From positions 68,219 to 132,218 of the forward strand of contig CAWFCL010000005.1 in assembly GCA_963814365.1 (NCBI GenBank): DNA of 64,000 nucleotides, given 5' to 3'. The stretch comes from an uncultured Actinomycetes bacterium. GTDB taxonomy: Bacteria; Actinomycetota; Thermoleophilia; RBG-16-64-13. Position numbers and translations under genes: made by a program. Shown here piece by piece: positions 4,385-38,707 of the stretch (its first letter is position 1; every line of letters starts with the position of its first letter). The notes beneath the pieces were generated by a model. That model worked only from the letters and a program-made list of their open reading frames with translations, did not search any database and was not told the origin of the DNA.

Positions 4385-4390
4385 AGTTCA

Positions 4391-4450
4391 GGCAGCCAAG
4401 ATGGCGAGGAGTGTGACAAGTACAAAGGGCGGCACCAAACGTTCCTCCAT
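4391..4450 (-). other. Detached signal-peptide segment of the esterase (lipobox L-A-A followed by TGA)
   Basis: An in-frame 20-codon hydrophobic leader ends ILAA, then TGA sits exactly where a lipobox Cys (TGC/TGT) is expected. Confidence 0.6.
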
Positions 4451-14030: not shown

Positions 14031-15464
14031 GCGACGCGAAGCCGCCTGCCAAGACCGGTCGGCACACCGGCCGGATCTTCGTCTGGACGATACTGGCTCT
14101 GGTGGTCGCGGTCCTGGTCGCGGCAGGCGGCTTCTATCTCTGGTACCGGAGCGAGGTTCAGGCGTCCAACGCACGTGTAGATCCCGAGGTCATAGCGGCG
14201 CTTGGAGAACATGCCACTGCCACCACTGTGGCCCAGATCACACCCCCGGACAGCATGAATATCGTCTTGTTGGGATCGGACACCCGGTCCGTGAACGGCA
14301 AAGGCGGTCGCTCCGACACGATCATCCTGGTGCATGTGGACACGCAGAACGACTTCCTCTCGATGCTCTCCCTGCCCCGTGATCTTAGAGTCAAGATCCC
14401 CGGTCACGGCTACAACAAGATCAACGCCGCCTATGCGTACGGCGGCGCGGCGCTGCTGATACGGACGGTCCAGTCGGTCGCAGGAGTCGATCTGGACCAT
14501 TATGTCGAGACGGATTTCAACGGGTTCAAGGCGATCACCGACTCTCTGGGCGGTGTCTACTTGGATGTCGACCGGACCTACGACGACGGCAAGATCCAAC
14601 TCGAGCCGGGCTACCAACTCTTGAATGGGCAGGATGCGCTGCGTTTCTGCCGCACGCGGCACGACAAGAACATCGACTTCGGACGCATGCAGAGACAGCA
14701 GAGGTACATCTCCGCCGTGAGGGAGCAGGCACTTGGTTGGAATCTGGCCTTCAAGATGCCCACCCTCATAAGTTCCACCTTCGAGAATGTGGACACGGAC
14801 CTCTCGGCCGACCAAGTCATCAAACTCGCTTGGTGGGGCATAGGACTCGAAGGAAGCCGCATGAAGATGGCCACCCTGGTGACCCGGACCGGCACCCTGA
14901 ACGGGATCTCGTTCGTGCTGGCCACCGACAAGCAGATAGCCGACGCGGTCCACGACTTCTTGACCCCGCCTCAAGAGACATCGGTCGACACCGACGCGAA
15001 GTCTGCGGACGAGTTGCTGGCGGCCGCGCAGGTCCTTGTTGCAGAAACCGACAAGACGCCGCTCGACAGCTCCTACTGGGTCAAGCTGGCCGAGGCTACG
15101 GACTTCTCTCTGGTGGCACCCACCTATCTGCCGCCCAAGTGCAAGTACTCGTACCGGCGGAGCTACGCCATCCAAGTGGACGGCGCGGGCATGCCCGCCA
15201 TCAGAGTCGGCTACAGACTCGGGACCAAGGATCAGTACCTAGGTATAGGCGAGACCACTTGGTTGGACGCTCCCCTGGCGGTTTCGGGCACCCAGATCGT
15301 CGTGAACGACACCGTCTTCACTGTCGTGGGCACCAGCACCAAGAACCGACCATGTCTGGTGGATCGAGGGCGGCGTCCTCTGCTGGGTCGCCAACACCCT
15401 CATGTACGAAATGCCTGCAGAGCAACTCTTGGCCGTGGCCATCTCCGCCATCCCGGTGCGCTAG
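14006..15464 (+). CDS. LytR-CpsA-Psr (LCP) family cell-envelope phosphotransferase; frame-disrupted near 15347
   Basis: LLGSDTR...GRSDTIILVHVD...SLPRDL...INAAYAYGG...DFNGF...LRFCRTRH. After ...GTSTKN the listed frame turns to nonsense. The +1 frame reads HVWWIEGGVLCWVANTLMYEMPAEQLLAVAISAIPVR and stops at 15462-15464. Confidence 0.8.
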
Positions 15465-19517: not shown

Positions 19518-20723
19518 ATGAAGCGCAGACAACCAGCCCCCGTCCAATGGGTACGCTACACAGTCCAGGTCGCGGTGGCGGCCTTCGTGCTGCTGTTGGT
19601 TGTCGCCAACACAGCAGGTAAGAGCTGGGCGGGGAACATCCACACCGTCTGCCCGTTCGGAGGTGTGGTCAACCTCTACACGTACTTCTCGGACGGGGGA
19701 TACGTAGCCAAGCTGCATTCGGCCGTATTCATCATGCTTATCGCTCTTCTGTTAGGGCTGGTGCTGACGGGCAAGTCGTTCTGCGGGTGGATATGCCCGC
19801 TTGGCTCAGCGCAGCAGGCACTCGGCTGGGTAGGCCAACGGCTCTGGCGACGCGCCTACAACAAGGTGCCGCGCTGGCTTGAGCGGGTGCTGCAATACCT
19901 CAAGTGGGCAGTCCTCGTCTGGGTGTTAGTCCAGACGGCACGGAGCGCCACACTGGTCTTTCAAGACTGGGATCCCTACTACAATCTCTACCACATCTGG
20001 ACCGACGAGGTCGCCATATCCGGCTACGTGGTGACCGGGGTCACCCTGGTGTTAGCGCTGTTCGTACCTCGGCCCTTCTGTAGATACGCCTGCCCCTTGG
20101 GAGCCTTCAACGGGCTGTTCAACTCGTTCTCTCTCATCAGCATCAAGCGCGACGCCCAGACCTGCAATGACTGCGGCCGCTGCTCAAGAGTCTGCCCAGT
20201 CAACATCGACCTATGCGCGAGCACGAACATCCGCAGCATCGAGTGCACCCGTTGCCTCAAGTGCGTGGATGTCTGCCCGCAGAATACTGCGGCCGGCGAC
20301 ACCTTGAAGCTCCACACCTGGTTCGGGGGCGCGGGTAAGACTCGGCGCTCAGTCTCCACTTGGCTCTTTGCCGGCATCGCCGTGATGGCCTTCGCTCTGC
20401 CCATCCTCATCACCACCCTCAGCGGTGACTTCCAGATCACCGGTGGCCACGGTGGCGGTGGCGGTGGTGGCGGCGGTGGTGGTGGCCGGGGGGGCGACCA
20501 GAGCTACGAGTCGCTCGAGCAGGCACCCCTTGATGGCATCAGCGTCAGAGGCAGCACGAGCTTAGACGATCTCGAGGGTCAAGGAGTGGACATCGCCGGG
20601 TTCCTGCGCGAGTTCGGCGTTCCCACAGAGATTTCAATGGAGACCCGCCTGCGAGAACTCACCGACCTCTACGGATTCACCATGGAGGAGGTCCGTGCCT
20701 ATTTGGAGAACGGGGAAAACTGA
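19518..20723 (+). CDS. NapH/MauN-like membrane polyferredoxin (4Fe-4S binding) with a poly-Gly linker and an extra C-terminal domain
   Basis: CPFGG, FCGWICPLG, FCRYACPLG, CNDCGRCSRVCP and CTRCLKCVDVCP motifs, with several TM helices. A run of about 14 Gly (20449-20495) precedes a ~75-aa acidic domain. Confidence 0.8.
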   Translation: MKRRQPAPVQWVRYTVQVAVAAFVLLLVVANTAGKSWAGNIHTVCPFGGVVNLYTYFSDGGYVAKLHSAVFIMLIALLLGLVLTGKSFCGWICPLGSAQQALGWVGQRLWRRAYNKVPRWLERVLQYLKWAVLVWVLVQTARSATLVFQDWDPYYNLYHIWTDEVAISGYVVTGVTLVLALFVPRPFCRYACPLGAFNGLFNSFSLISIKRDAQTCNDCGRCSRVCPVNIDLCASTNIRSIECTRCLKCVDVCPQNTAAGDTLKLHTWFGGAGKTRRSVSTWLFAGIAVMAFALPILITTLSGDFQITGGHGGGGGGGGGGGGRGGDQSYESLEQAPLDGISVRGSTSLDDLEGQGVDIAGFLREFGVPTEISMETRLRELTDLYGFTMEEVRAYLENGEN

Positions 20724-20764
20724 CGATACTAGGCGTGTCGGCTACAACGTGCAAAGGGGACATC

Positions 20765-21019
20765 GTGGAAGAATCCAACAGCATCGCCCGCATAGCCGTA
20801 TACATCGGCGACTTTCGCCTGGAGGGCGACCTGCATGTCGGCACAGAAGTGGGGGGCCGAAAGCGGCGAGTCTCTGACGTACTCAACGGGGAGTCTGCTT
20901 TTGTGTCGCTCACTGATGTCGCTATGACGGAGGCGAACTTCATGGCAGATGAACCTGAACGCCACGAGATCATCATCATTAGAAAGGGAGAGATCAGTTT
21001 CGTCGTCCCTCTGGCCTAG
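20765..21019 (+). CDS. Hypothetical small protein
   Basis: GTG 20765 follows AAGGGGA (the ORF track starts at 20735). G/C-rich third positions. No family recognised. Confidence 0.45.
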   Translation: MEESNSIARIAVYIGDFRLEGDLHVGTEVGGRKRRVSDVLNGESAFVSLTDVAMTEANFMADEPERHEIIIIRKGEISFVVPLA

Positions 21020-21066
21020 TATGGTGATGTTGACAAAATGACGGGTGCCTACTGAGAGGAGACCTT

Positions 21067-21282
21067 GTGAAACTGAACTGTCGCGATTGCCGATTCTTCG
21101 CAGCCTTTGGCGGTCAACAGCAGGGAAGCGGACAATGCAGGCGCTACCCTCCCACCATACCTGCCTCAGCGAGAGCGGATGAAGTCGATGTTTCCCTGAG
21201 GGCAGGGGTATGGCCGATAGTAGCGGGTGAGTCTTGGTGCGGGGAATACCAGACCCGAGAGCCAGCCCAAGAAGGTTCCTGA
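21067..21282 (+). CDS. Hypothetical small Cys-containing protein (CxxC...C...WCGE)
   Basis: GTG start after GAGGAG; 71 aa. Confidence 0.45.
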   Translation: MKLNCRDCRFFAAFGGQQQGSGQCRRYPPTIPASARADEVDVSLRAGVWPIVAGESWCGEYQTREPAQEGS

Positions 21283-21312
21283 GTCAAGCCGATCGAGGCC
21301 CCCGTCAAAGGG

Positions 21313-21711
21313 CTACAACATGAACTTCTCGGTGTCGATGGTGAAGCCGCTTATCTCGACCTCCGCATCCTTGAGATAGAAGCAGGCGTGCTCAAACTCG
21401 GAGTCTTCGCCGTACCGAATCTTGAGCATGGGCATCACAACGAAGGCTTTCTCGTTGAGCTCTGGTCGCTCGTCCAGAACCGCGGTAGCCTTGATGCGTA
21501 GCCACCTGCGGTCGCTTGCCAAGGCGCAAATCTCGATGTCCGGCTTCGCCATCAGTTGCTTGTAGCACTGCTTGTGCGTGCCCATGCCTATGTAGAGCTT
21601 CCCCTCGTGCTCCATGTAGAAGCTGAAGGGCCGCACCCTTGGCTTGCCCTCTTCTGTCGTCGCGCAAAAGAAGACTGCGGCATCCCTCAAGAACTCCAGC
21701 ACTCTCTCCAT
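21313..21711 (-). CDS. Pyridoxamine 5'-phosphate oxidase-like FMN-binding protein
   Basis: FFCATTEEGKPRVRPFSFYMEHEGKLYIGMGTHKQCYKQL; about 130 aa with a split-barrel pattern. Confidence 0.8.
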   Translation of the reverse strand: MERVLEFLRDAAVFFCATTEEGKPRVRPFSFYMEHEGKLYIGMGTHKQCYKQLMAKPDIEICALASDRRWLRIKATAVLDERPELNEKAFVVMPMLKIRYGEDSEFEHACFYLKDAEVEISGFTIDTEKFML

Positions 21712-21893
21712 CCCGATGCCTCCTCGTCGCGGGGCCGCCTGTTCTGCTTCCTGTAAGCGTACACCCGCGGCATGACGCGCGAAACTGTTGTGGGCAGGTA
21801 CCGCAGACCCCCCCGGGTGCGCTTATGCAAGCCTTACGACCCCTCCGTTGGGCTGAATGACATTACTAGAGGTCGATCCGGGAGATAACCCCA

Positions 21894-22969
21894 ATGAAAC
21901 ATAGACTCGTAGCATTGTCCATCGGCCTGGCTGCGGTTGGGTCAGTGACAGCGGGCGCGGCTGGCTGTGCAACGGAGACCGTCGCCGTCGCACAGACGGC
22001 AGTTCAGGAGACAGCTACGGACTCAAGCGTGACCTTGACCAGTATCCCGTCCTCAGCCGAAGGCTCGTTTCTTGACGTGACCGAGTTGTTCACTGACAGG
22101 GATATGGAGCAGTCGGCTGATATCGATGGCGCAACAATCATCACCGTGACAAACGAGACCGATGTGGTCATCGACGAAGAAGGCGTGTACATCCTTAGTG
22201 GCGACGCCAGCAATGTCACGGTCGAGGTCGATGCCGGCGACGAGGCAAGAGTGCAACTGGTGCTGGATGGCGTCAGCATCGTCAACGAATCAGCGCCTAT
22301 GCGGAAGCCAGTCTGGAAGCGGTCATCTTCTCCAGATCAGACCTGACCTTGAACGGCACGGGTTCTCTTGAGGTCGTCTCGGCCGAAGGCAACGGCATCA
22401 CCTGTAAAGATGATCTGAAGATCACCGGAGGCACCTTCAGCCTCGAATCCACGGCGGATGCCATAGAGGCGAATGACTCCATCTGCATCTCTGACGGTTC
22501 GATCACCATCGTCATCCTAAAGGATGCGCTTCACTGCGAGAATTCCGAAGATCCTTCCTTGGGATACATCTACGTAGCAGACGCGACGTTGAGCATCTCG
22601 GCTGCCGATGACGGCATCCAAGGAAACGCCATAGTGTAGATCGACAGTGGTGTAATAGACATCAAGACCTGCGCGGAGGGTATTGAGGGCACGCGGGTTC
22701 AGATCAACGGCGGCGACATAGACATCAACGCGACGGACGATGGCATCAACACGGCAGCCAAGAGTACCTATGACGTGGTGCTCGAGATCAACGGCGGCAC
22801 GATCGATGTGAACATGGCCAGCGGAGATACCGATGCCGTTGATTCAGACGGAGACCTCTACATCAACGGAGGCACCGTCAACATAGTCGGGAACTCGGCT
22901 TTCGATTACATGGGTGTGGGTGAATTCAACGGCGGCGATGTCACAGTCAACGCCGCGGCGGTGACATAA
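21894..22969 (+). pseudogene. Lipoprotein with carbohydrate-binding/beta-helix repeats (Cthe_2159-like), broken by one frameshift and one in-frame TAG
   Basis: Signal plus lipobox AAGC. There are repeated INGG..D...DDGI units. The frame changes at about 22287-22289 (gaa|atc A-run). TAG at 22637-22639 interrupts AIV*IDSG. Confidence 0.7.
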
Positions 22970-23053
22970 CTGACCCAATCCCAGAGGGGCCGTCCCGGCG
23001 GGAGATGATCTGAGAGGCCCTGCACGTAGGCAACGTCAGAGATATGGTGACGC

Positions 23054-23082
23054 TTGACCAGCCATGAAGTGCCACGTACAGT
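23054..23082 (+). promoter_or_regulatory. Candidate sigma-70-type promoter
   Basis: TTGACC-N17-TACAGT, about 55 nt upstream of ATG 23137. Confidence 0.35.
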
Positions 23083-23136
23083 CTGTTGAGCGCCCCAGTG
23101 TTTTTTAGGAGAGCCGTCAGTTGGGATGTGAGTGCC

Positions 23137-23523
23137 ATGGGCTTCACAGTGACGTTCGACCAGGACAAGAACTGCATCTTGGTCGCATGCTCAGGCAATC
23201 TCGATCTGCCCATGGTGCAGACCGTAGCCACAGAGGTGTCACGGACTATCGCACGTACGGGTTGCCTGCTGATAATGAATGACCTGCGAGACGCGCATCT
23301 TACTGATCACGCTGTTGACGTATATCGCATCCCGAGGATCATGACAGAGATCGGCATCTCACCTCTGGTCAAACGCGCCCTTGTCGTTGGCGACCGCCAA
23401 GAAGAGTTCCGCTTCCTTGAGACGGTGTTCGTGAACTACGGAAACGAAGTGCACATGTTTGCGGACACCGCCGATGCCGAAGCGTGGCTCTTTGGCGCGG
23501 GCCGGAAGACGCTCAAGCCGTAG
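23137..23523 (+). CDS. Hypothetical protein (STAS/SpoIIAA-like size and pattern; weak call)
   Basis: ATG 23137; 128 aa; coherent composition. Confidence 0.5.
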   Translation: MGFTVTFDQDKNCILVACSGNLDLPMVQTVATEVSRTIARTGCLLIMNDLRDAHLTDHAVDVYRIPRIMTEIGISPLVKRALVVGDRQEEFRFLETVFVNYGNEVHMFADTADAEAWLFGAGRKTLKP

Positions 23524-23545
23524 CATCTTGGGGGGGGTATGCGGT

Positions 23546-23976
23546 ATGACACCGACAGAGAAGCACACATGGCATCAGCGGCACCGGCAGCAGATGACTC
23601 TAGGTCAACGTATCGCGGACGGCACCGCACACACCATCGGTTCTTGGCCCTTCATCATCGGCCAGACAGTGATCGTATCGCTGTGGGTGCTGCTCAACGT
23701 CACTGCGTGGGCGCGGGATTGGGATCCTATCCTTTCATCCTGCTGAACCTCATGTTCTCCGTGCAGGCGGCGTACTCGGCACCTTTCATCATGATGAGCC
23801 AGAATCGCCAGGCCGAACGCGACCGCCTGCAGGCGCAGGCCGACCTTGACACCGACGTGAAGGCGGAGCTTGAGATCAAGGACATGCTTGGCCGACTCGA
23901 GAGCATCGAGCACTCGCTCGGCCGGATCGAGGCTGACCTGGCCAGGGTGCTGAGGCCGGCAGAATCGACTGATTGA
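23546..23976 (+). CDS. DUF1003 family membrane protein; frame-disrupted at about 23726-23728
   Basis: The WDPYPFILLNL..S..AA..AP.IMMSQNRQ signature is split: ...ARDWDP in one frame and (S)YPFILLNLMFSVQAAYSAPFIMMSQNRQ in the next. One C appears to be missing from gat-cc(c)-tat. Confidence 0.75.
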
Positions 23977-24031
23977 CCCCGCGGAAGAACTCGACAGGTC
24001 CGTTATATGCTGCCCGCGGGGTGACGTGAGG

Positions 24032-24060
24032 GTATGGGTCGTACTTGATGCTCTTCGAAC
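24032..24060 (+). repeat. tRNA-Val-3'-end-like dispersed repeat, copy 1
   Basis: gtatgggtcgtacttgatgctcttcgaac. A 28-nt stretch is identical to copy 3. Confidence 0.8.
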
Positions 24061-24082
24061 GCAGCCGTGTCGCGGTCAGCGG

Positions 24083-24796
24083 TCAGTCTCTGGTGCCAAG
24101 CAAAGGCCTGAGATCTGCCACGGGGTGAAGGACCAGACCCATCTCCAGGTCGGGGCTAGGAGAGACGAGCCGGCCACTGATGTCCCGCACCTTTCGGGAC
24201 CCAACCATCCACTCCTCGCGCACTCGGAGTCCTGATTCCCTCTCGACATAGACGAGGGCAAAGTCCGCAATGATCTCGCCTGGAGAAGGATCGGGAAACT
24301 CTGCCCTGTAGACGTCAGTCGCCTTGCCATCCACGACCTCTTCCCCAACCTTCTTTGCCGAGAATCCGCCAAGCGTGTCAATCCCCAAACGAGAGGAGTC
24401 TCCCCCCACAAAGTTCTCGAAGCTCGCTTGTGTGATGCCGGACTCAGCGCCCAGCGTAGAGAAGGTGAGCATCTCACCACCCTCCAGTACGGCACCGAAG
24501 TGGAGACTCCCCTGGTAGTAGATCTCGGTCCGCGCTCGCTCCTGGTCGAAGTCGATCAGGTTGTAGTTCTCCGTTTGTGGGTTCGCAGCGTCGGGCATGC
24601 TGTCGATCTGTTCCAGCCAGAACCCGGAGGGAACACCCGTCGAGAGGGGAGGGAGAGTAGGCAGCGCTGGCTCAGTGCTCGTAGGCTTGAGGTCGGCAGC
24701 AGGCGCAGTTGAACCGCAACCCGCGAGCTGCCCGCTGAGCAGAATCGCTTCAGCTAGTAGGATGCAGATGAGAGGTCGCCTGTAGTTGATCCTCAC
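24083..24796 (-). CDS. Hypothetical lipoprotein
   Basis: ICILLAEAILLSGQLAGC lipobox. GTG 24796 follows GGGGGTG (the ORF track starts at TTG 24811). Confidence 0.65.
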   Translation of the reverse strand: MRINYRRPLICILLAEAILLSGQLAGCGSTAPAADLKPTSTEPALPTLPPLSTGVPSGFWLEQIDSMPDAANPQTENYNLIDFDQERARTEIYYQGSLHFGAVLEGGEMLTFSTLGAESGITQASFENFVGGDSSRLGIDTLGGFSAKKVGEEVVDGKATDVYRAEFPDPSPGEIIADFALVYVERESGLRVREEWMVGSRKVRDISGRLVSPSPDLEMGLVLHPVADLRPLLGTRD

Positions 24797-24969
24797 GAAT
24801 ACACCCCCCAAACATAGAACCCAGCGACGGCTTCTCGTGGGTCAAGTCATGTCGCCTAGAGATTGGTATCGGCCAAAGTATGGACGGCAGTCAAACAATC
24901 GTCTTGGTCGCCGTGAGGCTTGCCAGTAGCACGCACTGTGTCGGCCGCTCTTCGTATCTGAGAGTCGGG

Positions 24970-24999
24970 GTACGGACGATACTTGATGCTCTTCGAGCC
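24970..24999 (+). repeat. tRNA-Val-3'-end-like dispersed repeat, copy 2
   Basis: gtacggacgatacttgatgctcttcgagcc. Confidence 0.8.
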
Positions 25000-25062
25000 T
25001 GAAGCGCAGCCGATCTGAATCAGTCGACCGGCTTGCGCACCTACGGCAGCTCGTTATACTCT

Positions 25063-25079
25063 ATAGCGTATTACGCTAT
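25063..25079. promoter_or_regulatory. Perfect 8-1-8 palindrome overlapping the MFS start codon (candidate operator)
   Basis: atagcgta-t-tacgctat. The ATG lies at 25078-25080. Confidence 0.4.
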
Positions 25080-26331
25080 GGAACGCCCTGATACAGACAC
25101 CGAGACCCCTCCTGAAGAGGCCCTGACCAGGGGGCGCTGGCTGACTCCGGGTGTCAGAGGCATCGGGGCCGCCAGCTTCCTGTCTGATCTCGGTCACGAG
25201 GTGGCCACCTCCCTCTTACCTCGTTTCGTGACTTCCACGCTTGGTGGCTCCGCGGCCGCCCTGGGAGCTATCGAGGGGATAGCGGATGGTATCGCTGGGG
25301 TGGCCCGTTTGGCGGGAGGAGCGCTTGCTGACGACCCCGAGAGGCGGCGCCGTGCTGCCATAGGCGGCTACACGAGCACTGCTGTTCTCACCAGCATCAT
25401 CGGCGTCGTGCAGGCGGTCTGGCAAGTGGGATTCCTGCGCGCTGGGGCGTGGGCCGCTCGGGGTCTGCGCGTTCCGGCGCGTAACGCTCTGCTCGCGGAT
25501 GCCGTCCCCAAGGACTACTACGGGCGAGCCTACGGCTTCGAGCGTGCGATGGACAACCTGGGCGCCATAGGTGGGCCCTTGCTGGCGCTTGGACTTGTCG
25601 CGCTCTTCTCGGTGCGCACGGCCATACTGATCTCGGTCGTTCCTGGTCTGTTCGCTGTTCTTGCCATCGTCTACGCCATTCGTCACATCCCGAAGCTGAC
25701 CGCCACCGAACGACAGCGGATACGACTGCGCGTACGCCCGGTGATGAAAGGTCGACTGGGCAGACTGATTCTGTCGGTATCTGCCTTCGAAATGGGAAAC
25801 GTGGCTGCCACTCTGCTCATCTTGCGAGCCACCCAACTCTTCACGCCGTCACGGGGAGTCGCAGCCGCCACCAGCCTTGGCGTGCTCCTCTATCTTGCGT
25901 ACAACGTCGCGGCGACAATATTCAGCATCCCGGCGGGGCACGCCATCGATCGAGTCGGTCCCGCGCCGTTGTTCGGCTTGGGCGCTGGCGTGTTTTTGGC
26001 GAGCTATCTCATGTTCGGTCTCTCCGGCCCCAACATCGGGATCCTGTTGGCCGCCTTCATACTCGCCGGATTCGGCATCGCCTGCGCCGAGACTTCCCAG
26101 CATGCCGCCGTTGCCGCTCATGCCCCCACCGAGGTCCGGGGCTCGGCTTTTGGGTTGCTTGCGGCCGTTCAGAGCTTCGGCAACCTGGCGGCAAGTGGCA
26201 TTGCTGGGGTGCTCTGGGCCGCCGTCTCTCCGAGAGCCGCCTTCATCTATTCTGCTGCCTGGATGTTCCTTGCTTTGATAGGCCTAGGCTTTCTTCGTGG
26301 TATTCCACCAGTGCCGGAGGCGAATCAGTGA
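25078..26331 (+). CDS. MFS transporter
   Basis: About 12 TM helices with an MFS-like loop (ADDPERRRRAAIGGY). ATG 25078; the ORF track starts at TTG 25033. Confidence 0.85.
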   Translation: MERPDTDTETPPEEALTRGRWLTPGVRGIGAASFLSDLGHEVATSLLPRFVTSTLGGSAAALGAIEGIADGIAGVARLAGGALADDPERRRRAAIGGYTSTAVLTSIIGVVQAVWQVGFLRAGAWAARGLRVPARNALLADAVPKDYYGRAYGFERAMDNLGAIGGPLLALGLVALFSVRTAILISVVPGLFAVLAIVYAIRHIPKLTATERQRIRLRVRPVMKGRLGRLILSVSAFEMGNVAATLLILRATQLFTPSRGVAAATSLGVLLYLAYNVAATIFSIPAGHAIDRVGPAPLFGLGAGVFLASYLMFGLSGPNIGILLAAFILAGFGIACAETSQHAAVAAHAPTEVRGSAFGLLAAVQSFGNLAASGIAGVLWAAVSPRAAFIYSAAWMFLALIGLGFLRGIPPVPEANQ

Positions 26332-26555
26332 GGCTGACCGCCCGCAACGTCCTAGGCGGTACGGTGGAGAAGATCACGCATGACACTGTGGTGTCTGAGA
26401 TCCAGCTTCGGCTTGACGGCGGGTTGAAGTTGGTCTCGGTGATCACCCGATGGTCTGTCGATCACCTTGGACTCGCGGTCGGACAGTACGCATATGCGGT
26501 CATACCCGGAGAAGACATTTCAATCGGAAACCCACAAGGAGGAATCTATGAGTAA
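26328..26555 (+). CDS. TOBE/Mop (molybdate/tungstate-binding) single-domain protein
   Basis: RLTARNVLGGTVEKI......EI.L.L.GG..L.SVIT..S...LGL..G......I. The GTG start overlaps the MFS stop (GTGA). Confidence 0.7.
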   Translation: MRLTARNVLGGTVEKITHDTVVSEIQLRLDGGLKLVSVITRWSVDHLGLAVGQYAYAVIPGEDISIGNPQGGIYE

Positions 26556-26913
26556 CTCGCGTCCATCGATAGACGCATGGCTAGAGGAGATCAAGCGTGA
26601 GCCGGGAAGCGAGAACATCGGCATAGTGTTCCTTCATGTGGGTGTTGCCCGTGGGACGACCAAGGACGGGAATCCTGTGGCCGGAGTAGAGATGACTCAT
26701 GACCCGGACAAGGTGGCGGAGGCGGTTGCCGAGGCCGAGGCAATCCCCGGCGTACTGGCTGCTCGTGCCTGGATCAACGAAGGCCTCCTAGACGTGGGCG
26801 ATGACATGGTGTGCGCTTTGGTGGCGGGCAACGTGCGGTCGAATGCATTCGGTGCTTGGGAGAAGCTGGCACGTCGCCTCAAATCGGAAGCTATGAACTA
26901 TCACGAGCGATAG
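26548..26913 (+). CDS. MoaE-like (molybdopterin synthase large-subunit fold) protein
   Basis: G.VF.HVG.AR....G..V..V....D......A.AEA......L.A.AW...G.L.VGDD.V...VAG..R..AF.A.E.L...LK.E parallels the MoaE pattern. AAGGAGG precedes ATG 26548. Confidence 0.5.
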   Translation: MSNSRPSIDAWLEEIKREPGSENIGIVFLHVGVARGTTKDGNPVAGVEMTHDPDKVAEAVAEAEAIPGVLAARAWINEGLLDVGDDMVCALVAGNVRSNAFGAWEKLARRLKSEAMNYHER

Positions 26914-26963
26914 GGCTGGCCGGTCGCACAGAGGATAGCCATGGTGATGCCGCTAGAGCTTAG

Positions 26964-26993
26964 GTATGGGCGATACTGGATACCCTTCGAACC
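26964..26993 (+). repeat. tRNA-Val-3'-end-like dispersed repeat, copy 4
   Basis: gtatgggcgatactggatacccttcgaacc. Positions 26967-26981 (tgggcgatactggat) are identical to 28711-28725, the 3' end of tRNA-Val. Confidence 0.85.
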
Positions 26994-27053
26994 TAGGCTG
27001 GACAGATGGGCGCTATTGGACAGACTCCAAACGCGATGATCGCGACCGACTGG

Positions 27054-27923
27054 CTACAGACTATCGACCAGGCGCTGAGAGACCACGACCAAGTCCACCG
27101 GCAAAGCCCCTGTCAGCAGCAAGAGGGCAAGGTTTCTAGCTTCCTGGAGACTGAATGTGCCGGCGATTTCTACAAGGCCTCCAGATATCTCATCATGGAC
27201 ACTCGGCGCCGATATCACTTCGCCGTCGAGCACAATTGCCAGTTGCTGGCTTGCGCCGGTCGCGACGCCTATCAATGCTAGTTCCCTGGTGGTCGTGGCA
27301 AGCGCTTGAGCACCATCGTCGTCGAACTGCATGGTGACCCTGTGGCTCCCGTTGGGACCCAAGCTGTCGTAGCCGACATCCATGAGCATGGAGCCGTCAA
27401 GCGGGGGTTCTGTCTCGGCAATGTAGTACTGGTCGAACGGGTTAGCCGTGCTCTGACCGGCCGGCCAGCAGACCAATTCCTTCTCAAAGGGAAGATCGTT
27501 GACGGTTGGCACACCTGCCGCGGCCAAGGCCTCCGCCTCAGAATCATAGCTTTGTCCGAAGTCGCATACGGGGAAGAAGAGCAAGACTCCGGCAGTCTCG
27601 ATGATCTCCAGAACTTCCGTCCGATCCTCGTCACCCGGAAGCCTCACGCATATCTGCCGCTGGCCTTCGCGCCAGACCTCGGAACCGACTATGCCGATGC
27701 GGTCCAGTCTGTCTTCGATGACCCACACCGCGACATCCATCCTGCCGCTCGTGACAGTCTCGTCTTCAGGGTCAGCCTCCAGAACCACTTCTCGGTAAGG
27801 GGCCGCGGGGAGGCCGTCAGTCGACGTAGGAGCTTCAGATTGAGACCCTGCCCCGCAGCCAGAGGGGCCTGCGATCACGACCGACACGACTACAAACGCG
27901 AGAGCGAGCTGCACCTTCCTCAC
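27054..27923 (-). CDS. Lipoprotein made only of a SecD-like periplasmic (P1-head) domain
   Basis: VVSVVIAGPSGC lipobox. The C-terminus LAIVLDGEVISAPSVHDEISGGLVEIAGTFSLQEARNLALLLLTGALPV is the SecD signature, but there is no TM bundle. GTG 27923 follows AAGGAGGAGGGG. Confidence 0.7.
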   Translation of the reverse strand: MRKVQLALAFVVVSVVIAGPSGCGAGSQSEAPTSTDGLPAAPYREVVLEADPEDETVTSGRMDVAVWVIEDRLDRIGIVGSEVWREGQRQICVRLPGDEDRTEVLEIIETAGVLLFFPVCDFGQSYDSEAEALAAAGVPTVNDLPFEKELVCWPAGQSTANPFDQYYIAETEPPLDGSMLMDVGYDSLGPNGSHRVTMQFDDDGAQALATTTRELALIGVATGASQQLAIVLDGEVISAPSVHDEISGGLVEIAGTFSLQEARNLALLLLTGALPVDLVVVSQRLVDSL

Positions 27924-28062
27924 GACCCCTCCTCCTTGGTTGGGCCTGCCTTCGCGGTCTAGGTTCGTGAGCAATCTTAGCTGAGTCGAGTCCCCTGCGT
28001 GACGCTCTCGGGCGATTGCCGACGGACGACGGAGCAGACGTCACTCGACGACGAAAGCATGA

Positions 28063-28092
28063 GTATGGGTCGTACTTGATGCTCTTCGAACC
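28063..28092 (+). repeat. tRNA-Val-3'-end-like dispersed repeat, copy 3
   Basis: gtatgggtcgtacttgatgctcttcgaacc. Confidence 0.8.
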
Positions 28093-28195
28093 TGAGAGGA
28101 TGTGGTTCGGAACGGAACGGTTGAGTCTGTAGTCTTTCTAGTGTTTGTACATGCCTTGGCGCTTGGGTAGCATGTTGGAAACTGACTAGGGGAAT

Positions 28196-28576
28196 ATGAT
28201 GACTGTGAGAAGAGTGATGTTCCTGCTGATCCCTGTCTTGGTGTTCAGTTGTGTCGCTCTCGCGGGATGCGGCGACCAAGAACCCTCGTCTGCCGCCGAT
28301 CAGCAGACTGCGACTACTACGCCTGTCGAGGCGGCGGTTCCTCAGGACCTGGTCGGCAAATGGGTGAGCGTCAAGGGCTTCGAGCAAGGCGGCATGCTTG
28401 AGTTCAATCCCGATGGCACATGCACTCAGACGGTCGCCGTGGGTGGCGAGAACACATTCGATATCATCGTAGAAGGTGACCAGATCGACCTAATGGGCCA
28501 GTTCACCATCGAGGGCGATACTCTCACACTGAGTGACGGCATTCATCCGCCAGACATCTACAATCGCATGGAGTAG
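28196..28576 (+). CDS. Small lipoprotein (lipocalin-like pattern)
   Basis: LIPVLVFSCVALAGC lipobox, then LVGKWVS...LEFNPDGT...TLTLSDG. Confidence 0.65.
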   Translation: MMTVRRVMFLLIPVLVFSCVALAGCGDQEPSSAADQQTATTTPVEAAVPQDLVGKWVSVKGFEQGGMLEFNPDGTCTQTVAVGGENTFDIIVEGDQIDLMGQFTIEGDTLTLSDGIHPPDIYNRME

Positions 28577-28710
28577 GCGAGCCAGGCGCTGGACGAATCA
28601 AGCAGGCACCTACCTGTTGAGGCAGAGAAGAGGATCGGATCCCCGGACCGCTTGCACCGTCGGTGGTTTTCTATACCACCACAACTGTGTCACGAGTGGC
28701 TACGATTTCA

Positions 28711-28782
28711 TGGGCGATACTGGATTTGAACCAGTGACCTCTGCAGTGTGAATGCAGCGCTCTCCCACTGAGCTAATCGCCC
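28711..28782 (-). tRNA. tRNA-Val (anticodon CAC)
   Basis: The reverse complement folds as GGGCGAT-TA-GCTC-AGTGGGA-GAGC-G-CTGCA-TTCACAC-TGCAG-AGGTC-ACTGG-TTCAAAT-CCAGT-ATCGCCC-A. It is 72 nt and CCA is not encoded. Confidence 0.95.
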
Positions 28783-28851: not shown

Positions 28852-29238
28852 CTAGACCACACGGGCCGTGGCCAGTCCTCCGACTACCATCGCGATACCC
28901 AGGACAGCGTTCAGCACGATGTGCGTTATCGCCAGCCCCCAACTGCCGTTGCGCAGAAACGAAGTCGTCTCCACCGAGAAAGCCGATAGGGTGGTCAGCG
29001 CCCCCAAGAAGCCGGTGAACACCGCCAGTTGCACAGTTGGCGACAGCACCAAGCGACGCTCCAGCAGACCCACCAGCAGCCCCGCGAGAAAGCAGCCCAC
29101 CAGATTGGCCACCACGGTACCTACTGGGAACTTGTCGCCAAACAACCGCACCCCTATGACAGCCGTAAGGTAGCGGGCTGTCGCTCCAAGACCGCCGCCC
29201 GTGGCCACGGCGATGACACTCACTAATGATTCTCGCAC
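28852..29238 (-). CDS. crcB: Fluoride ion channel CrcB/FluC
   Basis: GGGLGATARY...GT..ANL.G.F..G...TGF.G.LTT.S.F. GTG start after AAGGAG. Confidence 0.9.
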   Translation of the reverse strand: MRESLVSVIAVATGGGLGATARYLTAVIGVRLFGDKFPVGTVVANLVGCFLAGLLVGLLERRLVLSPTVQLAVFTGFLGALTTLSAFSVETTSFLRNGSWGLAITHIVLNAVLGIAMVVGGLATARVV

Positions 29239-29284
29239 TGCGCACTCCTTGCATGCGGGCAGGGTGAACCCCGCCAGGTGTTAC

Positions 29285-29335
29285 GGAGTAGGCGTTATCA
29301 GCGCGTGAACACGGTTAAGGCGAACGCCATCGCCC
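29285..29335 (-). promoter_or_regulatory. Fluoride riboswitch (crcB RNA motif)
   Basis: The minus strand reads GGGCGATGGCGTTCGCCTTAACCGTGTTCACGCGCTGATAACGCCTACTCC. This matches the conserved GGCGAUGG..UUCGCC..AACCG...GCUGAU.A..CCUAC core, and GGCGUU pairs with AACGCC. It lies directly 5' of crcB. Confidence 0.85.
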
Positions 29336-29359
29336 GCGGCCAGAAGGACCGCGTCAGGA

Positions 29360-32003
29360 TTATACCCGGAACCTCCGCAGCCTTAGTGAGTTGGATAGCA
29401 CGCTAACAGACGAAAGCGCCATGGCCACCGCCGCATACATCGGGTCCAGCAAGATGCCGAAGGCCGGGTAGAGAACCCCTGCTGCCACCGGGATGAGGGC
29501 GACGTTGTAGCCAAAAGCCCAGCCCAGGTTCTGCTTGATGACACGCATCGTCGCTCGGCTCAGGCTCACTGCCGTCGCTATGGGCGCTAGGTCACCACGG
29601 ATGAGGGTCACGTCGGCTGTCTCCATGGCCACGTCAGTACCGGTGCCGATGGCGATACCGATATCCGCCTGAGCCAGCGCCGGGGCATCGTTGATGCCAT
29701 CGCCTACCATGGCCACCACCTTGTCGGCTGCCTGCAACCGCTTCACCTCTTCGGCCTTTCGGTCGGGCAGGATTTCCGCCAAGACGGTCGTTATCCCGGC
29801 CTCGCGGGCGATCGCTTCGGCGGTCTGGCGGTTATCGCCCGTCAGCATGAGTACCTCTAGGCCTATGCTCTGTAGCTGACGGACGGCAGCCACAGAGTCA
29901 GCCTTGAGCACGTCGGCCACGCCTATCAGGCCGGCCACCTCGCCATCCACCACCACGAACATGGGAGTCTTGCCCTCTGCGGCCATACTATCCGCAGCCG
30001 TCGCCAGCTCTCCCGGTGAGTAACCCCGCTCATCCAGTAAACGGCGGTTGCCGAGTGAGACCTTCACCGGCTTGGACTCGATCTGCAGAAGTGTGGCGTC
30101 TACCCCCTGGCCAGGGGTCGCCAAGAAATCAGTGGCCTCCAACAGATCCACCCCTCGCGCCCGCGCCGCCTCCACGATGGCTTCACCCAGGGGGTGCTCC
30201 GACCCTCGTTCGGCCGAAGCCGCGAAGAGCAGCAGCTCGGCCTCTCGTTTACCCGCGTCGGCATTGCTCGCCCCGAAGTCGTCCGACCCGGGGTCACGCC
30301 CCGCGGGCGAGTCGCCGCCGACCACGACGATATCCGTGACCTCGGGCTTACCCCGGGTGAGAGTGCCGGTCTTGTCGAGCACCACGGTGTCGAGCCTGTG
30401 AGCCCGCTCCAGAGCCTCGCCTGAGCGGATTAGTATGCCGTTCTCAGCGCCCTTGCCCGTTCCCACCACTATGGCCGTGGGTGTGGCCAGACCCATGGCG
30501 CACGGGCAGGCGATCACCACCACCGAGACGAATGCCAGCATGGCCAGAGTGAACGCGGGTTCCGGACCCACGAAATACCAGATCAAGAAGGTGATCACCG
30601 CGACGCCCAGCACCACCGGCACGAAGATACTTGCGATGTAGTCCGCGAGCCGCTGGATAGGAGCTTTGGAACCCTGCGCCTCCTCGACCAGACGGACTAT
30701 CTGAGCAAGGGCGGTGTCGCGTCCCACCTTGGTCGCACGGAAGCGGAACGAGCCGGTGTGGTTGATGGTGGCCCCGATCACCTCATCGCCGGGGTCCTTC
30801 TCCACCGGTATGGACTCACCGGTGAGCATGGACTCGTCAACAGCCGAGCGTCCTTCGGTGACCTCGCCGTCCACGGGTATCTTCTCCCCCGGGCGTACGA
30901 TCACGACGTCGCCAACCACCACTTGGTCGACGGGTATGTCGATCTCTTGGCCCTCCCGCATCACGCGGGCGGTCTTGGCCTGCAGCCCTATCAGCCGCCT
31001 CATGGCCGCCCCCGTCCGGCCCTTCGCCCGCGCCTCCAGATAGCGCCCCAGCAGGATGAGCCCGATGATCATCACCGCCGAGTCGTAGTAGACCGCGGCT
31101 TCGAAGCCGGCGTTCTGAGCGCTTTCGAAGGCTCTCGAGAAGAACGTGACAGCAACCGAATACAGATAGGCCACAGTAGTGCCCACCGCTATCAGGGTGT
31201 TCATGTCGCTGGTACGGTGGCGCAGGGCAGCCCAGGCTCCCCGGTAGAACTGACCGCCGGCCCACACTCTGGATCGGGGTGGCCAAGACGAACATGATCA
31301 GCCATTGCCACTTCATGGCCAACACCGACTCGGGGATCAGCATCATGAGCATCAGCACGACGCCAACGGCTAGGGCCGCGATAAACTTGATCATCAGCAG
31401 GCGGGTCTTCCTGCTACGGGCCGCTTCGGCGATCGCGGTGGGATCCGTCGCCTGGTCCGCACCCGGGACACCGCCGGCCCCCGCGTTCGCCCCGACGGTC
31501 ACGACGAGCTCATACCCGGCGCTCTTGACGACGTCGGCAAGCTCGGTAGGCGTGGCGGCTCCGGGAAGATAGGTGACGGTGAGCTTCTCGGTGGCAAGGT
31601 TCACTGTCGCTTCGGCCACCCCCGGCACCCTCTGCACCACGCGGCCGACCCTCGCAGCGCAGTTGGCGCAATCCATGCCCAACACAGGGAAGGTGGCCGT
31701 GACATCCGCCACGCTATAACCTGCGTCTCTGATCGCGGCGACGATCTCACCGGTGGAGGTGCGGTGGGGGTTGTAGGTGACGGCCGCCCGCTCGGTCGCC
31801 AGGTTGACGGCGGTCTTGGTGACACCCTCTACCGCGGCAACGGCCTTCTCGACCCGAGCCACGCAGGCCGCGCAGTTCATCCCGTCTACCGGGATCTGGA
31901 CGGTGTAGCTGCCCGGCAGCCGGTGAGAGGCGCTTTCTTCCTGCGAATCCTCGTGCGGCTGTTCGGGCGACTTCATGTGCCCGCTGTGCTCGTGCTCGTC
32001 CAC
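29360..32003 (-). CDS. copA: Copper-translocating P1B-type ATPase (two N-terminal HMA domains); frame-disrupted at about 31264-31270
   Basis: GMNCAACV and GMDCANCA (HMA domains), CPC ([11 protein letters not shown]), DKTGTLT and GDGINDAP. The N-part ORF ends ...FVLATPIQ and the C-part begins [12 protein letters not shown] in a frame offset by 1 nt. Confidence 0.85.
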
Positions 32004-32146: not shown

Positions 32147-33271
32147 TCAGTGAGCCTTGGTGCGTAGGTTCCGAGTCTTGTCGATGGCTTGCAGCTTAGC
32201 TAGGGCCTTCGCCTCTATCTGGCGAATACGCTCACGGGTCACGCCGAAGCGCTTTGCCACCTCTTCCAGTGTGCGCGGGTGCTCACCCTTCAGGCCGAAG
32301 CGCAACTCGATGACCTTGCGCTCCCTGTAGGGCAGCATGGCCAGAGCGTCATTCACCCCGTCACGCTCCAACTGCGACGCCACTGCGTCGAAGGAACGCA
32401 CGGCGTCCTCGTCCTCGATGAAGTCGCCCAGTTCAGAGTCTTCTTCTTCGCCGATGGGAGTCTCCAGAGAGACCGTCGTCTGACTGATGCGCAGTATCTC
32501 GCGGATCTCCACTTCGGTCATGCTCATCTGGGTAGCAATCTCTTCGGGCTGAGGTTCGCGGCCCATGTTCTGCAACAGCTGACGCTGGACGCGGATGAGC
32601 TTGTTGATCTTCTCGACCATGTGCACGGGAATGCGTATCGTGCGCGCCTTATCGGCGATGGCACGGGTTATGGCTTGCCGGATCCACCAGGTGGCGTAAG
32701 TGCTGAACTTGTGTCCCTTGCGGTAGTCGAACTTCTCCACGGCACGTATGAGACCTAGGTTGCCTTCTTGGATGAGGTCTAAGAAGCCCATGCCATCCGT
32801 GTGGTACCTCTTGGCGATCGACACCACCAGCCGCAGGTTGGCTTCTGTAAGCTCATGCTTCGCCCTAATGTCACCACGCTCGATGCGCTTGGCCAGCGAG
32901 ACTTCCTGTTGGGCGGTCAGAAGCTTGACCCGGCCTATCTCCTTTAGATACATGCGGACAGGGTCGGTGGTAGGAACATCGACGCTCAGGTTGAGGTCGT
33001 TAGTCCCGCGCCGCCACTCGCCCTTTGCGCTCTTGCCGTCGATCTCCAGATCTTCCTCGGAGTCCATAGCGCTGTCGTCCACGACCTCTATACCTTGGTC
33101 TAGTATCGTCGTGTACAAGTACTCGATCTGCTCGGTGGTGAGGTCCAACTCCGAGAGCACTTCGGCGATGTCCTCAGCAGTGACGAAGCCTCGGCCACGC
33201 CCGAGCTCCAAGAGCCCGTCGATTTCTTCCAGGTTGGCTACCCAGCCTTCAGGAACAGGGGCATCAGCCAC
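32147..33271 (-). CDS. Sigma-70 family sigma factor, group 1/2 (RpoD paralog)
   Basis: [57 protein letters not shown], and the region 4 motif [23 protein letters not shown] start after GGAGG. Confidence 0.9.
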
Positions 33272-37591: not shown

Positions 37592-38707
37592 TCAACCGTC
37601 GATGTCGCGCAGCCCTTGGGCATCACGGAAATGCTTCAGACGATTAAGGGTCTTTGCCTCCACCTGCCGGATGCGTTCCCTGGTGACGCCGAAACGCTCC
37701 CCCACTTCCTCCAAGGTCCTGGGCCGCTCACCCTTCAGCCCGAAGCGCAACTCTAGGACCTTGCGGTCGCGGGCCGGGAGGCAATCGAGCACCTTGAAGA
37801 GCTCCTCTCTGCGTAGCTCACGGAACACGACCTCCAGAGGTTGATCGGAGTCGGCGCCGGCTATGAAGTCACCAAGTTCGGAGTCCTCTTCATCGCCCAC
37901 CGGCGTTTCCAGAGAAACGGGCTCCTGCGCCGCCTTCTGTATCTCTCTTACCTTGTTCGGACTGATGCCCAGCGCTTCGGCCATCTCCGGAACGGTGGGC
38001 TCTCGTCCGCTCTTCTGCAGCAACTCCCTCTGCACCCGGTTGAGCTTGTTCATGGTCTCCACTGCGTGCACTGGCACACGGATGGTCCTGGCCTGATCGG
38101 CGATGGCTCGAGTCACCGCCTGCCGTATCCACCATGTGGCGTAGGTAGAGAACTTGTATCCCAAGCGGTAGTCGAACTTCTCGACCGCCCGGATGAGCCC
38201 CAGATTCCCCTCCTGTATCAGATCCAAGAACAGCAGCCCCCGCCCCATGTACCGTTTGGCTATCGACACCACCAGGCGCAGGTTGGCTTCGGTCAGCTTG
38301 CGCTTCGCCTCTAGGTCTTGCTGCTCCACCCGCTTGGCCAGCTCCACCTCCTGCTGAGAAGTCAACAGGGGCACCTTGCCTATCTCGCGCAAGTACATGC
38401 GTACGGGGTCGTCTACGGTGTGGTCTATCGTCACGTCCAGCAGACTCAGGAATTCCTCTCCTTCGGAAAGGTCTTCTAGGTCTTCTGACTCTTCGTCCAC
38501 CACCTCGACGCCCATGTCACCCAAGAGCGAGTACACGAACTCAACATCTTCGGGAGTCAGGTCGGCTTCGTGTATGAGCGCGTTGACTTCCTCCAGCGTC
38601 AGAGAGCCTTGCTCCTTCGCCCGCTCGAGCGCACCCTGCAACACTTCGACGGTGACGTCGCCTCCGTGTACGGTCGCATCCTTGGGATTGTCGGTATCGT
38701 CAGACAT
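37592..38707 (-). CDS. rpoD: Principal-type sigma-70 factor in the dnaG-rpoD arrangement
   Basis: Regions 1.2-4 are present ([46 protein letters not shown]). ATG 38707 overlaps the dnaG stop by 8 nt. Confidence 0.9.

Follow-up and report, generated by a model that had tools for sequence, protein, structure and literature searches.

Transfer RNA (tRNA) genes are well-known hotspots of DNA integration, and the usual explanation is that the incoming elements bring their own integrase. In Dehalococcoides, islands at ssrA form tandem arrays bounded by a 20-bp repeat of ssrA's 3' end, with a conserved 15-bp non-ssrA motif just upstream; the insertion point has been inferred to lie in the T-loop, and some members carry no integration genes and have been discussed as cis-mobilizable (PMC3146451). 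Partial tRNAs are scattered through the tRNA-anchored tycheposon islands (bioRxiv 10.1101/2020.12.28.424599), and additive flexible genomic islands lie beside tRNAs in Alteromonas (PMC4119200). Islander admits a member only if it has an integrase, and tandem arrays of at least three islands are rare there (4/3919 islands; PMC4383910). Here we describe a tRNA-Val locus in a 64,000-nt window, by which we mean the whole stretch of DNA analysed (contig CAWFCL010000005.1, positions 68,219 to 132,218, from an uncultured Actinomycetes bacterium). A motif of about 32 nt, designated R, occurs there in four direct copies that divide 4.7 kb beside tRNA-Val into small cassettes. This 4.7-kb stretch is probably, though by no means certainly, the tRNA-proximal part of an additive island that arose as site-specific recombination recurred at the tRNA-Val 3' end; it would be composed of small integrase-less cassettes served by a recombinase in trans. 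Insertion hotspots at tRNA genes and tandem islands at tRNA or transfer-messenger RNA genes are known in general; tiny cassettes without an integrase are what is unusual here.

The four copies of R occupy positions 24032-24060 (R1), 24970-24998 (R2), 26964-26992 (R3) and 28063-28091 (R4). A first-pass annotation of the sequence had reported an intergenic motif of about 30 nt repeated four times in one orientation, and this description was borne out. A degenerate 29-mer allowing ≤3 mismatches matched exactly the four R copies, with 0.00 matches expected from 100 shuffles, and all copies are intergenic, downstream of tRNA-Val and in the orientation of the tRNA. A profile built from the four copies returned the tRNA-Val 3' end as its fifth-best match (E 0.14) and nothing further in the 64-kb window. 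R1 and R4 are identical over 29/29 nt, so that the identity first reported for this pair stands and its length of 28 nt does not. Likewise, R3 does share sequence with the tRNA end, over 16 nt rather than 15: 26966-26981 (ATGGGCGATACTGGAT) equals 28710-28725, which comprises the last 15 nt of the tRNA and one base beyond it. Similarity among the copies is confined to about 33 nt each, and their flanks do not align further. No copy of R was found outside the tRNA-Val island in the 64-kb window and about 90 kb of related loci (L003-L009; ~150 kb together). Copies at loci unrelated to tRNAs, which the annotation had named as evidence for a generic dispersed repeat, were therefore not encountered in the sequences fetched.

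Loci of related uncultured lineages were found through homologues of CrcB, whose gene adjoins tRNA-Val. The lineage of the window is referred to as W, and its informative relatives as lineages X (L003 and L004), Y (L006) and Z (L007). The features of the array, from the tRNA outward, are as follows.

28711-28782, minus strand: intact tRNA-Val(CAC), its 3' end (28711) facing the array; ARAGORN and Rfam tRNA, 73.3 bits.
28710-28725, minus strand: attB-like core (ATCCAGTATCGCCCAT in tRNA sense) covering tRNA positions 59/60-73 and one further base; identical to 26966-26981 and to L006 12454-12467.
28096-28709, plus strand: cassette D, ~0.6 kb, coding for a small lipoprotein (28196-28576) and absent from X, Y and Z.
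28062-28095, minus strand: R4, the major allele, CAGGTTCGAAGAGCATCAAGTACGACCCATAC in tRNA sense, between cassettes D and C; 32/33 nt match L004 2011-2043.
26997-28061, minus strand: cassette C, ~1.1 kb, with a SecD P1 head-only lipoprotein gene (27054-27923; Pfam SecDF_P1_head and SecD_1st); absent from X, Y and Z.
27006-27021, minus strand: partial core-like copy, 13/16 to the 16-mer of the tRNA 3' end, 40 nt tRNA-proximal of R3.
26963-26996, minus strand: R3, a hybrid allele that joins left half GGTTCGAAGGGTA to 16 nt reproducing the tRNA 3' end perfectly; it separates cassettes C and B.
25003-26962, plus strand: cassette B, ~2.0 kb, with genes for a major facilitator superfamily (MFS) protein (25078-26331), a TOBE protein (26328-26555) and a MoaE-like protein (26548-26913), all by Pfam.
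24968-25002, minus strand: R2, the most diverged copy, 79% identical to R1, between cassettes B and A.
24947-24959, minus strand: another left-half box (tRNA sense, TACGAAGAGCG), which follows the first box of R2 at a distance of exactly 41 nt.
24065-24967, minus strand: cassette A, ~0.9 kb, with a lipoprotein gene (24083-24796) of no Pfam family.
24030-24064, minus strand: R1, the major allele, between cassette A and the DUF1003 gene; its orthologue is L004 8018-8047 (26/30).
23539-23976, plus strand: DUF1003 gene, distal to R1 and still within the variable region; its G+C content at third codon positions (GC3), 0.68, is cassette-like.

ARAGORN and Rfam agree on the tRNA, which confirms the first-pass call of a genuine tRNA-Val(CAC) with its 3' end towards the array. 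The partial copies at 27006-27021 and 24947-24959 lie in the same orientation as R and had not been annotated before. The combination of R with a second TTCGAAGAG box at +41 recurs at a non-orthologous site (L004 2014/2055), and this second box may either belong to a site longer than R or be what is left of a neighbour that was deleted.

In tRNA sense, R comprises a 13-nt non-tRNA half, GGTTCGAAGAGCA, followed by a 15-nt copy of tRNA positions 60-73(+1). In the major allele the two halves read CAGGTTCGAAGAGCA and TCAAGTACGACCCATAC, and the tRNA counterpart of the right 15 nt is TCCAGTATCGCCCAT. The left 13 nt hold a T-loop-like GGTTCGAA, yet are 5 nt longer than the tRNA at this point, and R is therefore not simply a tRNA fragment. 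The proposed derivation of the repeats from the tRNA-Val 3' end thus applies to about 15 of the 32 nt and fails for the other 13, which make up an element-side half-site. Judged by its sequence, R is best described as an element-side half joined to a tRNA-derived half. Hybrids of the R left half with a perfect 14-16-nt tRNA 3' end occur at R3 in the window and at L006 12439-12467, and they look as an attR junction formed at tRNA-Val should look. The tRNA-derived halves of R1, R2 and R4 are diverged, with 10-12 of 14-15 nt matching, as against 16/16 in R3. The divergence of the major allele has a pattern: the same four positions differ from the tRNA at four non-orthologous sites (R1 and R4 in the window, L004 2012 and L003 11413), which indicates a copied allele rather than tRNA scars that decayed independently. 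At these four sites the 29-33-nt major allele is identical, and it is the sole sequence common to unrelated cassettes.

R has neither a conserved fold nor a fixed relation to genes. The inverted-repeat search found no arm pair inside it, Rfam returned no match, and when R and the 15 nt to each side of it were folded as DNA, for both strands, three copies had z scores of +0.1 to +1.5 and no shared hairpin emerged. Only copy 4 folds better than shuffled sequence, through flanks specific to that copy. Folding thereby rules out the hairpin-dependent mechanisms (integron attC, repetitive extragenic palindrome (REP) with its associated RAYT transposase, IS200/IS605-type transposition and an intrinsic terminator). 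A primer-binding site of the long terminal repeat type, complementary to a tRNA 3' end, was also rejected: the complement of CCA is absent, and GTA precedes TGGGCG. The ends of R resemble the 3' end of an E. coli-type tRNA-Lys, probably by coincidence, and this likeness was set aside. The gene pairs around R are convergent, divergent and tandem, with no rule of position or orientation.

The comparison with relatives is summarized below, with CrcB identity to the window in brackets and the genes that follow tRNA-Val in each lineage.

Window (lineage W): small lipoprotein, SecD-head lipoprotein.
Lineage X (L003, 87%; L004, 81%): GDSL-like gene, 266-aa gene, nucleotidyltransferase pair.
Lineage Y (L006, 74%): small genes without assigned role, PASTA-domain genes.
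Lineage Z (L007, 83%): AraC-like and cupin genes.
R copies in lineage X, all in tRNA orientation: L004 2012, 3101, ~4380 (degenerate) and 8018; L003 11413 and 12501.

The copA-crcB-tRNA-Val flank is present in X, Y and Z, with tRNA-Val after crcB in L003, L004, L006 and L007. In every pairwise blastn comparison among the four lineages, homology of the flank (73-82%) halts at the tRNA 3' end plus one base (28710 in the window). L003 and L004 are 97.5% identical and were counted as one lineage; they are independent contigs with the same cassette order. The GDSL-like gene, the 266-aa gene and the nucleotidyltransferase pair of X are all missing from the window, and copies of R lie between them. 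At the position of R3, beside module B, L004 has a degenerate counterpart (about 4380-4410). The presence or absence of cassettes at repeat boundaries, proposed earlier as a check, was thus observed in X, Y and Z, and the genes beyond the tRNA differ among relatives instead of being conserved throughout. The breakpoints at the tRNA end and at R in relatives also support the first-pass interpretation, in which the repeats are att-type scars left as DNA inserted serially at the 3' end of tRNA-Val. Two further loci, L005 and L009 (CrcB ~71% identical), are not syntenic and have no R. As a separate observation, L005 carries at 14392-14411 an orphan fragment, CGTTCAAATCCAGTATCCCCCA, that is nearly a tRNA-Val 3' end (13/14 in the core) with no tRNA gene within 20 kb; from its sequence, this may be what remains of an old att site at a different locus.

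Two modules of the window are shared with lineage X. Module B (MFS-TOBE-MoaE) is 93% identical to L004 4416-6369 and L003 13816-15531, and module A with the DUF1003 gene is 89% identical to L004 7202-8542. The core flank (rpoD, copA and crcB) is only 78-81% identical between the window and X; therefore, the modules have been shared more recently than the core genome. The homology of module B has its limits at 25000, in the opening bases of R2, and at 26951, which lies 12 nt past R3. Elsewhere, L008 6643-11689 encodes a 77% MFS homologue and a MoaE-like protein after a LysR/ModE-like regulator and a modABC-like ATP-binding cassette transporter, with neither a tRNA nor R nearby. This arrangement is probably the native context of module B, and it suggests that the trio carried in the island has a role in handling molybdate or tungstate. 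The MFS family is huge, and L008 was the only comparison of this kind that it gave.

Cassettes A to D are each bounded by R or by the tRNA end and carry no mobility genes. The first-pass gene calls within them (a lipoprotein, the MFS, TOBE and MoaE-like proteins, a SecD-head lipoprotein and a small lipoprotein) hold in Pfam, which places the cassette D lipoprotein in no reliable family. The cassette D protein is encoded on two independent Logan contigs beside a 289-aa SecD-head protein, with the same 272-nt spacing; 289 aa is also the length of the cassette C product. Nothing closely related to the SecD-head lipoprotein exists among 5.8 billion proteins; full-length SecD proteins come nearest, at 44-49% identity, which made it unsuitable for following cassette movement. 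A composition check on the cassettes had been suggested: GC3 is shifted, at 0.679 in island genes against 0.752 elsewhere in the window (Mann-Whitney p = 5.6e-6), whereas bulk G+C is flat along the window. Ten cassette open reading frames (ORFs) from X, Y and Z encode no recombinase in Pfam, and the ~nine modules of the three lineages hold neither a recombinase nor a recognisable fragment of one.

Two kinds of cargo deserve mention in their own right. A stand-alone SecD periplasmic P1 domain (SecD_1st plus P1 head), cut from a core translocase, is unusual as island cargo. In the L004 3260-4292 cassette, the gene for a nucleotidyltransferase (NTP_transf_2/Polbeta) is overlapped by the next one, which codes for 146 aa and belongs to no family; the layout is typical of MNT/HEPN-like toxin-antitoxin pairs. 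Such pairs are common cargo of integron cassettes.

We regard the locus as an insertion hotspot because R is confined to the region downstream of tRNA-Val and is always oriented as the tRNA, because the breakpoints fall at the tRNA end and at R, and because of the hybrid junctions and the excess similarity of shared cassettes. In the mechanism that we propose, each ~32-bp R would be an att-type junction of a 13-bp element-side half and a 15-bp tRNA-derived half. The inserted units would be cassettes that lack an integrase, measure 0.6-2 kb and hold 1-3 genes, in either orientation and presumably under their own promoters; directly oriented R sites would delimit them. New DNA would enter at the tRNA end and displace older cassettes outward, and recombination between two direct R sites could delete or circularise the cassettes between them. 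Since the cassettes are without an integrase, the recombinase would have to act in trans, encoded elsewhere in the genome or on a helper element. We infer that a site-specific recombinase made the junctions, that a cassette with one R is the mobile unit and that the system is still active.

A bolder version of this idea, which we put forward only tentatively, is that the locus is a tRNA-anchored cassette platform resembling an integron but built differently. Free-standing 0.6-2 kb cassettes, each with one unstructured 32-bp double-strand site in which an element half is joined to a mimic of the tRNA-Val 3' end, would be captured, excised and exchanged at tRNA-Val by a chromosomal or helper recombinase in trans, and co-occurring actinobacterial lineages would in this way swap single genes. 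If a trans-acting enzyme does move the cassettes, this would constitute a second fine-grained route of cassette exchange, independent of integrons, in poorly known uncultured anaerobic Actinomycetota. The conserved half-site GGTTCGAAGAGCA offers a concrete means of tracing the enzyme and of searching further genomes.

Several observations count against serial recombination at the tRNA-Val 3' end by an enzyme in trans. The major allele, if it replaced the tRNA 3' end, would break the acceptor stem (four differences); exchange at the CCCAT end is thereby favoured, or else recombination chiefly between R sites. R4 is tRNA-proximal and less tRNA-like than the more distal R3, a misfit with a simple history in which the newest insertion lies nearest the tRNA and the sites decay neutrally. 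W and X have B, A and DUF1003 in the same order, no cassette was seen at two positions, and an R that can be recognised is lacking in X at B's distal end. No tyrosine or serine recombinase or transposase was found by Pfam among about 60 ORFs of the window, which bears out the earlier statement that the window is free of an integrase, and no circular or empty-site junction was observed. The informative lineages number just three, all of them from metagenome assemblies, with W, X and Y drawn from a single one. Finally, exact-pattern scans for R in genome, metagenome and viral collections gave no real match, and either the R family is narrow or the exact patterns were overly strict. The first patterns demanded GTA at the left end, which is missing in some relatives' copies, and were probably too strict. 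The sole match in genome contigs (L001, Agitococcus) and the sole match in metagenome contigs (L002, low-GC DNA) were dismissed as chance, each lying inside coding DNA of an unrelated organism; two scans of viral contigs with R patterns gave zero matches.

The rival account that survives best is that the array consists of inert scars. Integrase-bearing islands or prophages would have inserted serially at tRNA-Val, deletion would have trimmed each to 0.6-2 kb of cargo, and the repeats would be decaying attR remnants among which nothing moves. We judge this unlikely, though it deserves weight. It invokes the textbook origin of displaced tRNA 3' fragments (PMC4383910) and agrees with the lack of a recombinase in the window ORFs and relatives' cassettes scanned, with the degraded state of the distal sites (R2, L004 ~4380 and, in X, the lack of an R after module B) and with the partial copies at 27006-27021 and 24947-24959, which resemble debris. 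It does not readily explain why the ~nine modules of three lineages are all small and free of any integrase fragment, or why the four tRNA mismatches are the same at four non-orthologous sites, a sign of copying rather than of independent accumulation. Nor would it predict that R4, the site closest to the tRNA, is less tRNA-like than R3, or that unrelated cassettes share R alone, since related attP arms of full elements should have left more. The small units, the lack of any integrase trace, the sharing of R alone and an allele identical across genomes ~20% apart would, as far as the sequences go, fit a trans-mobilised cassette with one R better than large elements decayed to stubs. Should the modules be inert scars after all, the locus would still be a clean, precisely mapped case of tRNA-adjacent additive-island turnover between close relatives.

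It is improbable that R is instead a cis-acting element, such as a protein-binding site or a signal of RNA processing or stability (e.g. a tRNA-like minihelix), that resembles a tRNA end by chance, with the gene differences arising from ordinary indels and homologous recombination in intergenic DNA. The invariably intergenic position of R and the striking conservation of its major allele are what such an element would lead one to expect, and the second TTCGAAGAG box at +41, present at two sites, could be a repeated binding motif. A cis-acting element would not be expected to keep no constant position or orientation to its flanking genes, which are convergent, divergent and tandem, nor, if it worked as RNA, to be without a shared secondary structure on either strand and without an Rfam match. 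Moreover, every R lies downstream of tRNA-Val and points the same way as the tRNA, the hybrid sites hold a perfect tRNA end, and the module B homologue in L008 has no R.

A tRNA-derived dispersed repeat that spreads by transposition, similar to a REP, a miniature inverted-repeat transposable element (MITE) or a short interspersed nuclear element, is close to refuted. The motif is short, intergenic and related to a tRNA, with several copies within 5 kb, as such a family would have it; it is, however, absent outside the tRNA-Val island in the 64-kb window and ~90 kb of related loci, all copies share one orientation, neither terminal inverted repeats nor a hairpin is present, and the exact-pattern scans of three public collections gave no real matches. 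The MITE/REP option of the first-pass annotation is accordingly rejected. Least credible of all is an assembly artefact, in which metagenome contigs mis-joined at a short repeat mimic cassette differences: all loci do come from metagenome assemblies and split genes (copA in the window and several in L006) suggest indel errors, but a 30-nt repeat is too short to mislead assemblies with contigs of 48-520 kb, the two independent short-read Logan contigs span R4 with the 289-aa SecD-head gene and the exact small lipoprotein at identical spacing, and the independent contigs L003 and L004 agree in cassette order.

The surroundings of the array offered further observations. The variable region outlasts the array (20700-23540): homology to X ends at 23533, and homology to Y resumes only at ~20020-20320. 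Neither the window profile nor motif comparison revealed an R or a tRNA-like fragment that would mark a distal boundary at the far side of the island. In this variable, lower-GC3 region to the left of the array, two adjacent plus-strand ORFs of 150 aa (lipoprotein-like start, Cthe_2159 carbohydrate-binding match) and 96 aa at 21894-22639 look like a single gene broken by a stop or frameshift. The remaining window resembles a core actinobacterial chromosome, with DnaG, RpoD, GatCAB, GlyRS and a PknB-PBP-RodA-PP2C-FHA cluster. On the other side of the tRNA, the following genes were noted.

28852-29343, minus strand: crcB (Pfam CRCB) with a fluoride riboswitch at 29282-29343 (Rfam RF01734, 46 bits); syntenic in X, Y and Z.
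29360-32003, minus strand: copA (copper ATPase), split into overlapping ORFs at 29360-31267 and 30837-32003, the latter with HMA domains.
32147-33271 and 37592-38707, minus strand: two full-length RpoD-type sigma-70 genes, 4 kb apart and ~68% identical in DNA.

The fluoride riboswitch thus lies directly upstream of crcB, beside the tRNA-Val hotspot. The copA gene of lineage X is intact (855 aa), and the split in the window is either a frameshift pseudogene or an assembly indel. The pair of sigma-70 genes is kept in lineages X and Y.

We compared the locus with known systems, beginning with those that it resembles least. A Xer/dif site spans 28 bp and has two dyad-symmetric 11-bp arms around a 6-bp spacer. 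No such arm pair exists in R; on direct reading, GGGTCGTA and TTCGAACC, 10 nt apart, give its best symmetry (6/8), which R3 does not retain. Neither the scattered copies of a REP or MITE family (window and L003-L009) nor a palindrome or terminal inverted repeats were found. Three features of the tRNA islands catalogued by Islander are present: an intact target tRNA-Val at one end, a displaced 3' fragment of the same tRNA in direct orientation (R3 16/16; R1, R2 and R4 diverged) and an island that differs in relatives with the break at the tRNA (28710; L003, L004, L006 and L007). The integrase that should lie inside each such island was not found by Pfam in the cassettes, the ~60 window ORFs or the relatives' cassettes.

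Like an integron, the locus is a dense array of small cassettes that share only a short recombination site, with the recombinase outside the cassette. The cargo is also integron-like, consisting of secreted proteins, lipoproteins, proteins without assigned function and the nucleotidyltransferase pair of lineage X, and the newest cassettes appear nearest the entry site. Unlike an integron, it has no adjacent intI or attI, and its array is headed by tRNA-Val, beyond which come crcB, copA and rpoD. R is a conserved, unstructured 32 bp without attC-type folding, whereas attC is variable and folded; the cassette genes point both ways, and the entry site is the end of a tRNA gene.

The locus shares with the tycheposon islands of Prochlorococcus and the islands of Alteromonas a conserved tRNA target, older material pushed outward, scattered partial tRNAs and niche-type accessory cargo whose content varies between co-occurring relatives. 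Tycheposons encode their own tyrosine or large serine recombinase and usually replication genes, in contrast to the cassettes scanned here, which have none. The units described here are ~ten times smaller and the host is an uncultured anaerobic actinobacterium. The match to tycheposons is therefore one of architecture with partial tRNAs only, the element-encoded recombinase being absent.

The Dehalococcoides ssrA islands and the accretion of cis-mobilizable elements (CIMEs) in streptococci provide the remaining comparison (PMC3146451; PMC5704250). Differences from them are evident. The modules here measure 0.6-2 kb, as against several kb to tens of kb, and an integration module is present in 0 of ~nine modules, as against 16 islands in Dehalococcoides. 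The target is tRNA-Val instead of ssrA, four shared positions set the tRNA-derived half of the commonest R allele apart from the target, and no cognate integrase, DsiB-like or tyrosine, was identified here. The similarities lie in the plan of the array. In these systems, as in ours, an intact RNA gene stands at one end and direct repeats of its 3' end delimit strain-specific modules, with a conserved non-target motif immediately upstream of the repeat and the junction in or at the T-loop. As in CIMEs, the segments between direct att-type sites (cassettes A to D) are devoid of recombination and transfer genes. Both there and here, some modules are without integration genes and the array is a hotspot of variation between close relatives.

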